Shown: positions 28,201 to 34,200 of the stretch, piece by piece
How the letters are laid out: every line of letters begins with the position of its first letter
Numbering within the stretch: the first letter of the stretch is position 1
Source of the DNA: a virus
Lineage: Duplodnaviria > Heunggongvirae > Uroviricota > Caudoviricetes
Virus record (IMG/VR): IMGVR_UViG_2563366903_000020
Reading direction: 5' to 3' (one strand)
Length of the DNA: 37,235 bases
Position numbers: made by a program

Positions 28201-31200
28201 GTTGGCCTCATCTGCGGTTTCGTATGCGGTGCGGATCAGGTACAGGTTGCGTGGAATGAGCACGCCGCCCTGACGGTTGATGTAGGTGGCAAAACACCCC
28301 ACGTCAGCGGCGGCCAGAATGGCGTCAATGTCGTCATGGTCCAGGCGCTTCGGTGATGCGGGGTTACGCTCCATTTGTCCGGCAAGGCGGCGGAGTTCAC
28401 GCCATACCTGGCGGGGCGGGATACCGAAGAACTGGAACTGCCGGATGCGGTGGAGACTCGCCCAGGCAATGGCGTTTTCCACGGTTTCCGCCATGGTTTT
28501 TCCCGATTCTTTATCGGCGTAAGGTTTGCCGGTTTTCGGGTCATTGTCGTGAAAGGTGCTGGCGTCCAGGTTCTTGCCAATATAGGTTGCGATGTAGCTT
28601 GCCGGTGTGCCTTTTGCCGGGTCGATTTTTTCGCACTTGAAGCGCGGAGAAATATCATTCCCCAGTTCTGCGCGATCTGATTTGATTGCTGCGTCACGCA
28701 TGATTTCAATGATGCGTTCTTCATTGTCCGGGGCGGTGAATACCAGCATGTGCCAGTGCGGTGTGCCGTCATGGTGTGGCTCAACGGTGCGCACCCCGTA
28801 CCAGCTCAGGCCTTCTTTGTTGAGTTTTTTTCTTGCAGCTGCAAAGACGTCGTAAACCAGATAATCACTGGCATCGCGCACGGTGGCACCGTTGTATTTC
28901 GGGTTCAGGCTGCCGTCCTCGTTTACGCTGTGAAAGCGGGAAGGGCAGGTCACTGTCACGAAGAACGCGGAGTCACCACGCGATTCGGCGACCTGTTCCA
29001 TCCCTCTGACGCAGGCCATCATCTCGTTGCGGCGGTTGCGCGGATTCCCCAGCCCTGACCAGTACACGTCCTCCAGACTCAGGCGTTCACCGTCTTCGTT
29101 TTCAATGTCCCAGCTTTTGAGAAAATCACGGGTGCGCTGGCGTTTCTCCCGGAATTCCTGGAGTGACTCATGGCTGATGTAGGGGGATGCCTTGCGCGAT
29201 ACTCTTCCGGCGGCACGCAGTAATTCCTCCCGCCAGAGATCAGCGAGGTGGCGCAGCTGGTTGTTCCACCAGGTAGCGCAGGTGATACGCATTACCGCGC
29301 CCGGTACCAGTTCAGGGTCTGGTGCCGTGCGGCGGTCACGTCTGATCTCGAGTGACGGCCAGTATGGTGGGTTCACGCCCAGTTTTATTGCCATGCGCGC
29401 CAGCTGCTGGTAAGTCAGCAACCAGGTAAACAGGTTATCGTCGCCTTTTCCTGTCCGCTCAGTAACTTCATCACATATGCGTTCCAGTTCGGTGGAAAAT
29501 GCCGCCGCCGTTAGTGTGGCAAGGCGCTGAATTTGATCACGGTTGAGTTGTGGCAGCATGAGTAATTCATCAAGGCGATGGCGTGCTGCGGTGGCTTTGA
29601 ATGCCGTCGTGGCGAAGCATTCATTCACCTGTTCGATGCGTTTCAGGCGTGTGCGCAGTCCACGGCGAACAAAGTTATCAGCCACGTGTGTATTGTTGTT
29701 TTTCACGCCTTCATGGCGGGCGCTTTGCTGTTTGCGGTTTAAACGCGTCAGATCACGAATGAGCGCGTTGCCAAGAAACGAGGGCAGGGCGCGAAGTTCT
29801 GCCATGGCTTCCGATACCACCGTGGGCGGATTCTCGCGTTTGTGCCGCGCCAGTTTTTCCAGTCTGATCCGACGCTCTTCGTTGTGGTGAAGGTGCGAAT
29901 TAATTCGCTTCCCTTCGTCTGTGGTTGTCAGAAAGGCGACGGTTTCTTCATCCAGTCTGGCATCAATGCGAATGTCCTCGTTGATGTAGCTCTGAATGGC
30001 CTGGCGTAATGCGGTTGGTTGTGCTCTGCCGAACGTTTCAGGATCGATAACCGGTAGCGGTGCGTTCCACGGGTACGCCAGCTGTGCATTGCGGTCACTC
30101 ATGCGTCGTACTCCCCGCCAGTGACCTCCTGAAACGCCGCGCGGTACAGCACGAGAAGGCGCTGGTATTCACCGATAAAGTCTTCTGCGGTGTATATGCC
30201 TTTCACGGCCACGCTGTGGGTTGTCATTTCCAGAACCAGTGCCATCTCTGACGATGACCAGCTGATGGCGGTACTGTCGGTGCCGTTGATGTGAAATAAA
30301 CCAAAGCCATCACCGTCACCTTTCACGTCCACGCGGTAACGACCGTCAACGGTGAAGGAGAAATCCCCGTATGTGGTGATGCTGCGGGCGGCCTGTTTAC
30401 AGGCGCGGCGGTAGTAGTCGTGCCAGTTGTTCAGGCGGGAAGCCAGCAGGGGATCCACCGCCCACATCCAGTTAAAAAAGTCCTGAATATCTGAAAGTCC
30501 CTTAACGCTCTTCATGAGAACCTCCGGTAACAGACGTGCGGAAGCCTCCCGCGCACGGGTGCGGGATGGCTTCAGGATGTGGTTTATCGGTGCTGGTTGA
30601 TGAGGCTTTGCAGTTCTGCCAGGTCTTCGGCCAGATAGCTGAAGACTGCCGCGTAATACCCGGCAGCGATACCGTCGTTAAGTCGGTGTAATACGTTTGA
30701 CTGCATGATAAAGGCGACAGATGCAGCCCGATGGAGTCTGCGGTTGATTTCGCTGCGGATGTGAAGACGCTCAGCGCGGGCGCGCTGTTGCTTGCGGTTT
30801 GCCATGGTGTGGCCTCTTCGTTTGTGAATTTTGAAAACTCACCAACCAGAGGTGGAAAACTCAGGGTGGCGAGACGTACAGGGTTTCCACAACCGGCAAA
30901 CGAAGAAACCGGCCCGACCGAAGTCGGCCCTGTACGCCCCGCCATAATTCTGACGCGAAAAAGACGTGGCGATACAGTACGCACAAAAAAACCGCTGGCG
31001 CGGTTGTGCGCTACGTTTGTCAGCAGGCTGCGAAACCCGGCACCCGTTTTATGAGGTGCAGCGGAAATGTAACCCGACACGACGAGCGCTGGCAAGCGGT
31101 TTTTGTGTTGCGTGCTGAAGTATGTATAATCGCGGCGCAAAAATGGAATGCGCCGAGGGATAGCGGCGTTTATTAACAATGGAGGTTGTTTATGCCTGTT

Positions 31201-34200
31201 GCTATGGAGCAAGCAGACAAGAAGATTTTTTTTCATCTGTGGTACAGCTATTGGCTGGAAGAGATGGTTTTCATACTCAGCAATAAAGCCGCTGCCATGT
31301 TGCGCGCCGGGGCGCTGATTGCTGCGGTATTGTCCTTTCTTCTGGTTGGTTTTCCCGTCCTGATGAGCCTTTGGGGGCTGGCGTTTTTTGTTTTTTCCTG
31401 GTTTTGCAGCAAGTGTGAATTCGTCGCCGAACTGGCGTGCTGGCAGAAACAGAGCTACCTTCGTCTGATTACGCAAAGGGATTTCATGAGCACTGAACGC
31501 CTGATTGAGCGCATTCTGTATCTGGAAGAAACGAACAGCGCATCCATGAAGGCGTTTGTCAGGCCCGCAAAAAACAAAGCGAGCGCATCTGTTGGTCTGT
31601 CTGCCAGCGAGCATTTGCGTTACTCCGAAAGGTTAATCTGCTGGTTGTGCGGCGTCTGATCGACTCCCGGCTGCGTGATGCTTTTACCGTCTTCCCTGAC
31701 AGGCGGTAATGACACGTCTATGTTCAGCTTGAGTGCCATTGCGTACTCCGCCCGCGCGCCAGCTGAATCCTCCCAGCCTTCCAGCAAGTAAATGACATCG
31801 GCACACATGAGCATCGGAATACAAATACTCATGTACTGCTGCTGGCTTAATCCGTCAGGCAGTACGGCAGGATTAAGAACGATGTTTCCGGCGCACCGAA
31901 GTTTCAGGTCCTCCACGCAAAATGCCGTCCTGTTGTGTCTTTGCATCCGGTCATGGGACCGGCGATATAAATCACTGCCATGCTTTACCTCCCGTATTGC
32001 GTGTTGCTGTCAGCACGCGTACTTCTTCCATGTTCGTGGCGCAGAAGTGCGAACCGTTGATAAGGCGGATGTGATGCATCTCAGGGTGGCGATAACCTCC
32101 GGTGCTGATTCCCGGGTTCTTGCGCCAACGCTTCGTGGTGCCTGGATGGCGTTCATCCGGTAACCCTGATAAATGCGTCTGGTTTCCGGTGTGTCGGAAT
32201 TGGATATGGTGATGCTGGTCATGCCGCCCGTTTCCTGTGAAAGGCGGTCAAGCGCTGCCCTCAGACGAACGTGCTCGTCTTCATCGAATGGTTTTCCGTA
32301 GGCGGTGAAATTGTCCCGGCCACTGAATCGCAGGTAAGGGGGATCGCAGTACACGCAAAGCGTGTTGCCCATGCCGAACAGGTGACTGGCAGAGTTCAGC
32401 GTATCCTTAAAATCTGCGTGGATAAGCAGCGTTCGGGTGCTGTTTGCCTTGTCTGCAAATGCGCGGATTTCACGCTCAGGGAAGTAGGGCTTGCGGTAGC
32501 AGCCGAAAGGCACGTTAAAATCGCCTTTTCCGTTCACGCGGAACAAACCGTTAAAGCTGTGTCGGTTCAGGTACAAAAACATGGCGGCCAGTCGCAGTTC
32601 ACGGCGGTCGCTTATTCCCGTTCTGCTGTTCAGGAAGGCATGATTCTCTGCGTTAAAGGTTTCGCGAATGATGAGATAGTCACCCCTGTTGTTGTGGTTC
32701 AGGAACAGGGTTTTCGCCTCGTCGATCAGGCTGTCGGTGTTGTCCCTGGCTTGCCGGTAGAAATTAATCAGCGCACCATTGGAATCACCCAGGATGTAAC
32801 GCTTGTAACTGGTGTTCATGAATACCGATGCGCCACCCACAAACGGCTCAACCAGGCAGTCTGCTTCTGGCAGATGCGCCTTCAGTGTGTTCATGATGCG
32901 ACTTTTTCCGCCCACCCATTTAAGCGGCGTGCCGGATAACAGTTCTTTGCTCATAACGCGGCCTCTTTGTTATAGGTTTCGTGCGTTAATAAATCCCATG
33001 ACGCCCCGTTGTTTTTGCTCAGCAATCGCCAGCGAAAACCGATTCTTATTACCAGGTAGTCGTGGGGTTTTATGCGTGAAAAATTCCGCACGCCGTCGCG
33101 GAATAAACGCAGCGATGCGCGGGCTTTTCTTTCCACGTTCAGGGGGGGGCAGCAACACACATTCAGGATGGCGACCATGGCTTCACCTCATATGTTCAGG
33201 AATGGTGTTGTGAAGCGCTGCCAGATTTCTGACACGACCTTTGCCTGGTAAACGGCGTCGCCCAGCGCGGTGTGAGCAATGGTCTCTTTGCCTGATCTGC
33301 CTGGCATTTTCCATCCAGTTGATTCAGCCATGGCGATAAGCGGGCGCATACAGCGCTCGTTCCAGTAGCACCAGGGGATGCTTTTTTCTCCGGCTGTGCG
33401 TGTTATGGCGGATTTCAGGATCGGGAAATCGAAGGATGCGCCCTTACACCATATGTTCAGTGAATTGCCCGGGCTTTCGTCATGCATATTGCGTGAAATG
33501 AACGCCAGAAATTCGGTCACTGCTGCCAGCTCTGTTCCATCTGCGTTGCGCAGGCAGGCTCTGGCTTCCACGGATTGTCCGGCCCACCATACAGCGGTGG
33601 CTGCATTGACGGTTCCGCCGTTGCGTTCTGAATCCACCGGGTCGATGAATTTCTCAAACTGCTTGCCCAGCTTTCCGGTGAACGGGTCGAAAAACACCGC
33701 CCCAATCGCGAATATGGCTGCGTCCGGTCCGTTACCCAGTGTTTCGGTGTCAATCATGAGATGGTTCATTATGCGCACCCCTTCAGTTCGTCTGGGTTGG
33801 CGAGTATTGCAATCAGTCGTTCAATGGATGAACAGGTTTCCTCCGGGGAGGTGTGCTTCTCTCTCGCTGTGTTAACCAGGTCATGCAGCAATTCGCAGAT
33901 ATGCGCACGCTCGGCTTTTCTTGCGGCAATGCTGATATGTGCATGATGGTTAGCTGGTCTGGCGGTTATTTTTCTGCCTGGTGATTCGGCTGTTCTCATT
34001 TGTTGACTCCTGAAAAAAGACAAAGGGAACCCGAAGGCATGAATGCCTTAATTAATTGCTCGTGTGTTTTCTGGTGTTATTCCGCGCCTGCTTTCGGCTT
34101 CAGGTTATTCCCAGATCTTCAGGGCTAACCAGATAAGCGCACTCACCTGAAATATCACCCATACAGTGGCGATGGTGAGTATTGCTTTTACATTCTTCAT

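Follow-up and report, generated by a model that had tools for sequence, protein, structure and literature searches.

What is a gene for a small membrane protein doing in the early operon of a prophage, pointing against the direction in which that operon is transcribed? The window analyzed here, a stretch of 37,235 nucleotides, belongs to an Escherichia coli prophage of the P88-like group of the P2 family. As originally predicted, a plus-strand gene lies amid a minus-strand early operon: the surrounding array spans about 9.4 kb, from cox (35203-35727) to the gene for SSB (26284-26601), includes the genes for Dam, a 3'-5' exonuclease and gpA, and runs on the minus strand; the C repressor gene and int lie on the plus strand, as does the ORF. 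The gene and its immediate surroundings comprise the following features:

31103-31108, plus strand: putative -35 element TTGTGT (3/6), 16 bp from the -10, a prediction lying in sequence common to phage P88, which lacks the gene
31125-31130, plus strand: putative -10 element, a perfect TATAAT of conserved position, forming the opening bases of the exchangeable cassette (left breakpoint 31124/31125)
31131-31191, plus strand: 5' leader, of about 55 nt for a transcription start near 31135-31138, with a pair of inverted repeats that overlap (31132-31154 and 31151-31168)
31181-31185, plus strand: Shine-Dalgarno sequence GGAGG, 6 nt 5' of the ATG, read from the sequence and kept in allele A variants
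31192-31659, plus strand: coding sequence of a predicted N-in/C-in inner-membrane protein of the phrog_6315 family (ORF, profile, dN/dS and AF2 model)
31288-31410, plus strand: hydrophobic helical hairpin, codons 33-73 (TM1 ~33-52, turn GFP 53-55, TM2 ~55-73), from Kyte-Doolittle and AF2
31620-31659, no strand assigned: 40 bp shared with the 3' end of the convergent DUF4406 gene, from ORF coordinates and not conserved in other loci
31125-31703, plus strand: exchangeable cassette, devoid of nucleotide similarity to its counterpart in a prophage whose backbone is otherwise 91% identical

The plus frame is the coding frame, and the gene is real. The coding sequence of 155 aa starts at the ATG at 31192 (31192-31659, plus strand), with a longer ORF call from a TTG start (31186-31659, plus strand), and both it and its GGAGG ribosome-binding site lie where they had been predicted. 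Comparison of the window with four E. coli alleles yielded a dN/dS of 0.13-0.20 and a third-position excess in the plus frame, bearing out the expectation that the ORF is kept in coding frame in related prophages, and a dN/dS of 1.2-2.1 in the antisense ORF of 370 aa that overlaps the gene (30502-31614). The plus frame is also kept across genera, at constant length, down to 23-30% identity. Residues 9-154 of the protein match positions 4-148 (of 152) of the phrog_6315 profile with E=5.6e-28. This small PHROGs family of unknown function is found only in Enterobacterales, where it forms 36 clusters of proteins of 152-157 aa whose cytoplasmic motifs are conserved and whose TM helices vary. The family has no match in Pfam, NCBIfam or PADLOC, and tblastn against 50,697 phage records matched only vB_YenM_42.18, Fels-2 and PSTNGR2lys; its members are confined to prophages and phages. 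It is hardly credible that the ORF arose by chance, with the true gene being the antisense ORF or no gene existing at all: long antisense ORFs do overlap the gene (370 aa here, 221 aa in Yersinia) and were picked by the GenBank annotators of the Fels-2 and vB_YenM_42.18 records, but the contrasting dN/dS values and the conservation between genera speak against them, the 370-aa ORF traverses two RNA genes, isrK and C4, and PGAP annotates the plus-strand ORF in E. coli. The wrong strand is annotated at this gene in those two reference phage records, and RefSeq hides the isrK and C4 RNAs beside it under a probably spurious CDS.

The gene apparently has its own, putative promoter. TATAAT occurs twice in the window, against 5.2 occurrences expected, and TTG-N19-TATAAT once, against 0.09 expected. 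In all five aligned alleles the corresponding position is occupied by TATAAT or TAGAAT, even where the sequence downstream is unrelated. A strict consensus promoter scan of the window did not list this promoter, since its -35 element matches the consensus at only three of six positions; of the strong promoter originally proposed, the perfect and position-conserved -10 element is upheld, whereas the -35 element falls short. On the plus strand, the leader does not fold more stably than shuffled sequences (z = -0.5), and symmetric substitutions in its inverted repeats were observed in only one other allele. The promoter has no sequence in common with the Pe/Pc operator region, and hence nothing suggests repression by C. 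At the other end of the gene, no terminator-like site was detected on the plus strand between 31660 and approximately 31990, and a transcript from the plus strand would accordingly extend, as antisense RNA, into the genes for the DUF4406 protein and Dam. The convergent DUF4406 ORF (31620-31946, minus strand; Pfam E=2e-23) overlaps the gene by exactly the 40 bp originally noted. This overlap amounts to 27 bp in allele B and to 0 in the O103 and Hafnia loci, and it is incidental.

The gene is oriented against the flanking phage operon in every context checked (P88-like, 186/Fels-2-like, P2-like, Mu-like and lambdoid). It is reverse-oriented in E. coli P88-like prophages, in the Yersinia phage vB_YenM_42.18 and in a Salmonella Mu-like prophage, as well as in Fels-2, between fil and STM2733, in a Hafnia 186-like prophage, next to cII, and in a Providencia lambdoid phage, within the PL operon. 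In Pectobacterium and Brenneria it has cox on one side and C on the other and shares the direction of C and int; a plus-strand terminator follows the cassette there, and a TTGACA-18-TAAATT promoter is directed back through it. Such constancy could mean that transcription, and not the protein, is what matters, with a promoter opposing the early operon that dampens lytic transcription by interference and keeps the prophage quiet. Besides the universal reverse orientation among these contexts, the lack of a terminator downstream of the window gene and the Pectobacterium arrangement, in which the cassette separates an early-type promoter from cox and the promoters converge, would fit this explanation. 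The protein, however, is under clear purifying selection and its motifs are conserved across genera, which makes interference quite improbable as the main function, while still compatible as a secondary effect.

The boundaries of the cassette are sharp, falling at 31124/31125 on the left and at the stop codon or at 31703 on the right. The allele that replaces it in the 91%-identical backbone encodes a protein 37-39% identical to that of the window and has its -10 element at the same position. In phage P88 the gene is absent and homology stops at 31108, and divergent backbones have only positions 30702-31659 in common, ending at the stop codon. Morons are independently transcribed accessory phage genes, a concept that stems from lambdoid phages, and the old, tin and fun(Z) genes of P2 are examples from the P2 family. 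Like a moron, the gene is an extra that close relatives lack, is exchanged in one piece in E. coli, points in a direction that does not depend on the operon around it and apparently has its own promoter, and the Pectobacterium cassette has both promoter and terminator; the window copy differs in lacking a terminator, and we only infer its expression in the lysogen. It sits inside the early operon, away from the known P2 hotspots and from the sites at which defence hotspots have been described in P2-like phages (PMC9122126). The accessory, lysogenic-conversion-type layout proposed at the outset finds strong backing in the conserved frame, the absence from P88, the exchange of the cassette, the reverse orientation in every lineage examined and the constant position of the -10 element. 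It is very probable, then, that this is an autonomous, reverse-oriented accessory gene.

What such a gene does is a separate question. Genes for lysogenic conversion likewise typically have the moron layout, and the protein could alter host physiology unrelated to phages, for instance by modulating a membrane transporter, envelope stress or a signalling protein; the lack of a defence signature in PADLOC would agree with this. Allelic replacement at 37-39% identity in one backbone is nevertheless more typical of conflict genes, and the restriction of the family to prophages and phages also argues against this role, which we consider improbable.

The gene has as its immediate neighbour a module of the isrK/C4 kind, represented elsewhere by isrK-orf45-anrP of Gifsy-1, c4-icd-ant of P1 and the ant operon of N15:

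31066-31095, minus strand: isrK promoter TTGCCA-18-TACATT, back-to-back with the plus-strand promoter (promoter scan)
30985-31059, minus strand: isrK sRNA with terminator, part of the neighbouring module and outside the gene under study (Rfam RF01394, 67.2 bits against a gathering score of 50)
30862-30949, minus strand: C4 antisense RNA of the same module (Rfam RF01695, 82.1 bits against a gathering score of 45)
30584-30805, minus strand: ORF of 73 aa for a "derepression protein", downstream of isrK-C4 (Pfam PF25738, 27.9 bits against a cut-off of 27; phrog_3688 E=1e-31)

The gene is not part of this anti-repressor module, but their promoters are back-to-back, and the inferred starts of the two transcripts lie about 78 bp apart (isrK 5' end at 31059 according to Rfam). 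All E. coli copies stand back-to-back with PisrK and move with the isrK-C4 block. Its only partner elsewhere is a translationally coupled micro-ORF upstream, carrying the motif FHVLHKPAPPE and detected in all 11 contexts outside E. coli. Each of these micro-ORFs has its own Shine-Dalgarno sequence and encodes a proline-rich peptide of 26-58 aa, a peptide family that occurs only in the same taxa as the phrog_6315 gene. The micro-ORF is absent from the window and from all E. coli alleles with upstream sequence examined, in which the leader measures about 55-60 nt, so the copy in the window may function in another way than is usual for the family.

These associations could point to a membrane toxin in an addiction cassette, or to a protein with which the phage times its own lysis or induction, the micro-ORF supplying the antidote or a regulator; in E. 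coli it would have been lost and the gene placed under other control, possibly jointly with the adjacent isrK/C4 switch. The coupled, taxonomically matched micro-ORF and the constant pairing with PisrK favor this possibility, as does the report that in Gifsy-1 strong expression of IsrK arrests growth and that prophage induction depends on IsrK (PMC4825925). Against it, copies without the micro-ORF are maintained under purifying selection, as would not be expected if the protein were a toxin left unguarded; the complementarity of IsrK and C4 to the leader of the gene is no better than random; no isrK or C4 was found beside family members in other phages; and no divergent gene of this kind was found in other isrK-C4 phages. 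On balance, we deem a toxin or timing function unlikely.

The predicted architecture of the protein bears on the remaining explanations. A Kyte-Doolittle scan delineates a single hydrophobic stretch at residues ~33-73, interrupted at G53-F54-P55, and the AF2 model (pLDDT 82, pTM 0.71) contains helices at 2-51 and 56-94, together with three short helices. Both analyses support the originally predicted pair of TM helices, which are modelled as a tight hairpin almost without a periplasmic loop. In the predicted topology, the conserved N-terminal helix (WYSYWLExM) and a C-terminal helical region of about 80 residues are both cytoplasmic.

A prophage inner-membrane protein could act in superinfection exclusion at the stage of DNA entry, blocking genome injection by related phages without killing the cell, as T4 Imm, P22 SieA and HK97 gp15 do. 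The layout is equally suggestive of this role, the product is small and predicted to reside in the inner membrane, and strongly divergent alleles at one slot of near-identical backbones fit an arms race with incoming phages. Yet periplasmic exposure would be almost nil, with G53-F54-P55 as the loop, and it is the cytoplasmic residues that are invariant, the TM helices being the most variable part. RexB of lambda, SieB of P22 and lambda, Imm of T4 and Sim of P1 are likewise small phage-encoded envelope or membrane proteins, but no sequence similarity to any of them was detected, including searches for the Imm, SieB and Sim families with Pfam and tblastn. RexB has four TM helices and requires RexA, and Sim is a processed periplasmic protein. 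In P1, sim adjoins c4, and the gene described here similarly lies beside a C4-type RNA. Exclusion at DNA entry appears to us about as doubtful as the toxin or timing function. The homology searches originally called for returned the family assignment and no known exclusion or defence protein.

The predicted protein shares its layout with the SLATT proteins (SMODS and SLOG-associating 2TM effector domains): an N-terminal cytoplasmic helix, a tight two-TM hairpin and a cytoplasmic helical tail. The window protein did not match any SLATT family HMM (Pfam SLATT_1 to SLATT_5, DUF4231) at gathering score, nor any defence-system model of PADLOC-DB v2. Querying with a subgroup consensus produced a SLATT_1 match collinear over residues 15-97 (E=0.006, 17.1 bits against a cut-off of 26.3); SLATT_4 matched weakly (E=0.11), and the PADLOC "Effector 2TM" model matched 2 of 27 relatives (E=0.03). 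SLATT proteins were enriched among the best Foldseek matches in BFVD, accounting for 8 of the top 50, but with E>=0.3 and TM-scores of 0.26-0.54. All scores lie under the curated thresholds, and these data provide weak but repeated hints of a SLATT-like 2TM effector. No nucleotide-signal generator or sensor and no RT was found, fused or in operon, and in the window the gene has no co-oriented neighbour; it is stand-alone here, unlike the 2TM effectors of CBASS, Pycsar and RT-based systems. According to Rousset et al. (2022, PMC9122126), TM proteins that belong to known anti-phage systems presumably serve as effectors of cell suicide.

Our tentative preference, by analogy with such systems, is that the gene may work in phage exclusion or defence. 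It would constitute a moron placed backwards in the early (lytic) operon, with a sigma-70 promoter of its own and with the orientation of the C repressor gene and int, and the protein would be made in the lysogen. There it might serve as a membrane effector against incoming phages, its conserved cytoplasmic part receiving a signal or partner and its hairpin perturbing the membrane, through a mechanism that would resemble that of 2TM effectors of the SLATT type and of other membrane proteins with which prophages bring about abortive infection or exclusion. More speculatively, and with a good deal less likelihood, phrog_6315 and the proline-rich micro-ORF could form a SLATT-like system of two components, so far unrecognised, that acts at the membrane in defence or abortive infection in enterobacterial temperate phages and is set always against lytic transcription; the E. 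coli P88-like copy would have lost the peptide and been captured beside the isrK/C4 switch, where a bidirectional promoter region would co-regulate the induction decision and a membrane effector.

Should lysogens produce the protein and should it block other phages, prophage defence would gain an uncharacterised family of membrane effectors, encoded by a single gene here and by two elsewhere. The interior of the early operon would then be a third cargo position in P2-family phages, beyond the hotspots already described, and the strongly divergent alleles in identical backbones constitute a natural experiment on specificity.

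Annotation of the window outlined a P2-family prophage of the P88/Xuanwuvirus type, in whose early region a single convincing plus-strand gene was found (the 2TM gene, for a predicted two-helix inner-membrane protein). The features considered here are the following.

up to ~25 kb, plus strand: portal and terminase genes
26284-26601 (SSB) to 35203-35727 (cox), minus strand: early array, containing in order from cox DUF4761, 3'-5' exonuclease, Dam, DUF4406, gpA (27589-30102) and a MarR-like gene
30502..31614, minus strand: 370-aa ORF antisense to the 2TM gene
30805..30584, minus strand: derepression-protein ORF, 73 aa
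30949..30862, minus strand: C4 antisense RNA (Rfam)
31059..30985, minus strand: isrK sRNA (Rfam)
31095..31066, minus strand: isrK promoter, TTGCCA-18-TACATT
31125-31130, plus strand: -10 hexamer TATAAT of the putative 2TM promoter, with a weak putative -35, TTGTGT
31192..31659, plus strand: 2TM gene, 155 aa, ATG start, inside the minus-strand early array
35832-36173, plus strand: C repressor
36228 onwards, plus strand: int

The plus-strand reading frame, a GGAGG located 6 nt 5' of its ATG and an overlap of exactly 40 bp between its 3' end and the DUF4406 ORF all agree with the original prediction. A functional meaning for the overlap was rejected, as other loci do not keep it.

The comparative analysis revealed that the 2TM gene opposes the flanking phage operon in every context examined. 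These include E. coli P88-like prophages of various backbones, Fels-2 (between fil and STM2733), a Hafnia 186-like prophage (adjoining cII), the Yersinia phage vB_YenM_42.18, a Mu-like prophage of Salmonella (amid late genes) and a Providencia lambdoid phage (within the PL operon). In P2-like prophages of Pectobacterium and Brenneria the gene is flanked by cox and C and has the same direction as C and int. A terminator-like hairpin lies 3' of the cassette there, and from the start of C a TTGACA-18-TAAATT promoter reads back through the cassette. This reverse orientation is that of a moron, an independently transcribed accessory gene of the prophage, and supports the structural argument made at the outset. 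The 2TM gene is very probably an accessory gene that is autonomous and read in the lysogenic direction from a putative promoter. The Hafnia prophage also harbors, between CI and int, a PARIS-like pair (8923-11267) of an AAA_15 ATPase and DUF4435.

Comparison of the window with four E. coli alleles yielded dN/dS values of 0.13-0.20 and a clear third-position excess for the plus frame, and values of 1.2-2.1 for the antisense frame. The coding frame is conserved in related prophages, a point on which the original prediction had staked the gene. The antisense 370-aa ORF was rejected as a true gene, given its dN/dS above 1 and its course across the isrK and C4 RNA genes. The plus-strand product matched phrog_6315 along its entire length (E=5.6e-28), and searches against Pfam, NCBIfam and PADLOC, as well as a PDB sequence search, returned no match; known structures offered little for comparison. 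This family has few members: an exhaustive phmmer search of 1.84 billion representatives identified only 11, and a profile search 36 clusters, with full-length members of 151-157 aa. All organism-named clusters belong to the Enterobacterales and are annotated as 'hypothetical'. A literature search returned no paper on STM2733/2734/2735 or on the 2TM gene in P88-like phages.

The family alignment highlighted conserved cytoplasmic motifs (F14, Y18, L22-E23-x-M25, W70, A82, Q85, Y89, L92, S116, P125-A126 and E146) and far more variable hydrophobic helices. Residues ~33-73 form a single hydrophobic stretch interrupted at G53-F54-P55. A single-sequence AF2 model was poor (pLDDT 67), and an alignment-based model (pLDDT 82, pTM 0.71) was used instead; in it, helices 2-51 and 56-94 pair as a long hairpin, and three short helices come after them. 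Because the C-terminal 75 residues contain 11 Lys and Arg, the positive-inside rule points to a likely N-in/C-in topology with almost no periplasmic exposure. Two CxxC motifs were observed in proteins of the window-type allele (allele A): CSKC, adjoining the membrane (codons 72-75, 31405-31416), and CWLC at the C-terminus (codons 150-153, 31639-31650). CSKC is not kept in the P0001 variant, and both are missing from the divergent E. coli allele (allele B).

Several weak matches connect this architecture with SLATT proteins. A subgroup consensus matched SLATT_1 collinearly over residues 15-97 (E=0.006), one family member matched SLATT_4 (E=0.11), two matched the PADLOC 'Effector 2TM' model (E=0.03), and annotated SLATT proteins account for 8 of the 50 leading Foldseek matches in BFVD, all with E of at least 0.3. 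These weak signals suggest an architecture that is SLATT-like, with membership of SLATT not established. On the best-supported reading, still a tentative one, the product may serve phage exclusion or abortive infection as a membrane effector of SLATT-like type. One rival is that the protein blocks injection; conservation of the cytoplasmic part, together with the near absence of a periplasmic loop, favors triggering from the cytoplasm rather than a block of DNA entry.

Outside E. coli, all 11 contexts present a micro-ORF of 26-58 aa ahead of the 2TM gene (L007 7911-7991, L010 7882-7995, the Hafnia prophage 6911-6991, L012 6812-6988, L018 3842-3958, vB_YenM_42.18 3868-3986, and L024-L027). It has its own Shine-Dalgarno and encodes a proline-rich peptide with a charged tail and the conserved motif [D/N]FHVLH(K/R)PAPPE, of a family detected only in the same taxa. 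The peptide could act as a regulator, an antidote or a subunit. The two genes are translationally coupled: the micro-ORF stop lies 4-12 nt ahead of the 2TM start, and the 2TM Shine-Dalgarno therefore falls within the last micro-ORF codons. In 7 of the 11 contexts, from five prophage types, a conserved GC hairpin (GCCGGG..CCCGGC) followed by an extended -10-like GTGGTAnnnT element lies upstream of the micro-ORF; these 7 are the Yersinia phage and the P2-, 186- and Fels-2-like prophages. The micro-ORF is missing from the window and from all E. coli alleles with upstream sequence examined, where the leader spans only ~55-60 nt; judged from these sequences, the window copy is a derived, solo form. 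Two reference phage records annotate the strand opposite to the 2TM gene and micro-ORF: Fels-2 (NC_010463, 3414-3818) lists the antisense ORF STM2733.1 and not the conserved pair, and vB_YenM_42.18 (3803-4468) lists the 221-aa antisense gp08.

Directly upstream of the 2TM gene in the window lie three minus-strand elements: isrK, C4 and the derepression ORF. Region 30584-31095 constitutes a complete module that includes the isrK terminator and a promoter of its own. It is set in the early operon, of P2 type, a short way upstream of gpA, and is similar to two anti-repressor switches, P1 immI and Gifsy-1 isrK. In Gifsy-1, PisrK gives rise both to the sRNA and, by read-through, to the mRNA of an anti-repressor, and is required for induction (PMC4825925). 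Since mEp460, N15 and many Stx phages carry the isrK-C4 pair ahead of anti-repressor genes without a divergent gene, and isrK/C4 do not adjoin the family members of other phages, the juxtaposition is specific to the present E. coli lineage; as a trait of the whole phrog_6315 family it was rejected. A toxin or timing function linked to the micro-ORF or to the isrK switch is a further rival. Base pairing of IsrK or C4 with the leader as a means of regulation was rejected, as 52 and 254 of 300 shuffled leaders, respectively, gave duplex energies at least as good. A 62-aa plus-strand 'hypothetical protein' annotated in RefSeq and GenBank antisense to C4 and isrK (WP_024192890.1, P88 gp13; window 30866-31054, DETEC-S792 prophage 5807-5995, P88 4132-4320) is probably an annotation artefact.

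P88 lacks the 2TM gene, its homology to the window ending at 31108. The O103:H2 12009 and S1-CHI-01-A prophages, with quite different backbones, have only 30702-31659 in common with the window, a block comprising isrK-C4 and the 2TM gene that ends a few bases from the stop codon. Conversely, one backbone with 91% identity to the window shows no nucleotide similarity across 31125-31703, and its allele there has 37-39% protein identity to the window product. Among 5,426 complete E. coli genomes, 12 carry the allele A gene in full or for the most part, and 25 carry allele B, which has sub-alleles at ~83% identity. The divergent alleles fit a conflict gene; conversion of host physiology is another rival reading.

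Other differences were observed nearby. Relative to the near-identical DETEC-S792 prophage, there is an indel polymorphism of ~478 bp (window ~32079-32084, DETEC-S792 7027-7504), at which the window lacks about one and a half small genes present in DETEC-S792 between DUF4406 and Dam, and Dam measures 314 aa in the window and 326 aa in DETEC-S792; the short form is a natural variant, since strain STEC2018-607 has it too. DETEC-S792 also carries a second reverse-oriented gene (10576-11013, plus strand, 145 aa) between the DUF4761 region and cox, missing from the window, where homology stops at 35184. Between Dam and the exonuclease, a 75-aa ORF (32951-33178, minus strand) is named 'ParE family toxin-like protein' (WP_000225756.1) in some RefSeq genomes, with no obvious annotated antitoxin partner.

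The promoter had been described as strong. Its perfect TATAAT is present, but the -35 is weak, and for this reason a strict consensus scan omitted it while listing the isrK promoter on the opposite strand. TATAAT occurs twice in the window (5.2 expected) and TTG-N19-TATAAT once (0.09 expected). Each of the five aligned alleles has a -10, either TATAAT or TAGAAT, at the same distance from the common upstream sequence, with unrelated leaders, and this positional retention is the best available evidence for a putatively functional promoter. The window scan detected no plus-strand terminator-like site 3' of the gene before ~31998. The isrK and putative 2TM promoters stand back-to-back with inferred starts ~78 bp apart; transcriptional interference as the main role is a rival reading too.

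No 8-mers are common to the Pe/Pc and 2TM promoter regions; nothing therefore suggests control by C, which was rejected. A structured 5' leader was likewise rejected (plus-strand fold z = -0.5). The leader contains two overlapping inverted repeats (31132-31168; CGGCGCA-N9-TGCGCCG and CGCCG-N8-CGGCG), in which only one other allele, S1-CHI, bears symmetric changes, three positions differing in a mutually compensating way. With only two variants this is not significant and does not suffice as evidence of a structure; the repeats could act on either strand or be a protein-binding site.

Morons encoding small membrane proteins are a well-known kind, and the phrog_6315 family is catalogued and uncharacterised. 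What is new is the position of the gene within the early operon, its obligate reverse orientation over four phage lineages, its partnership with a micro-ORF outside E. coli and its coupling to PisrK.
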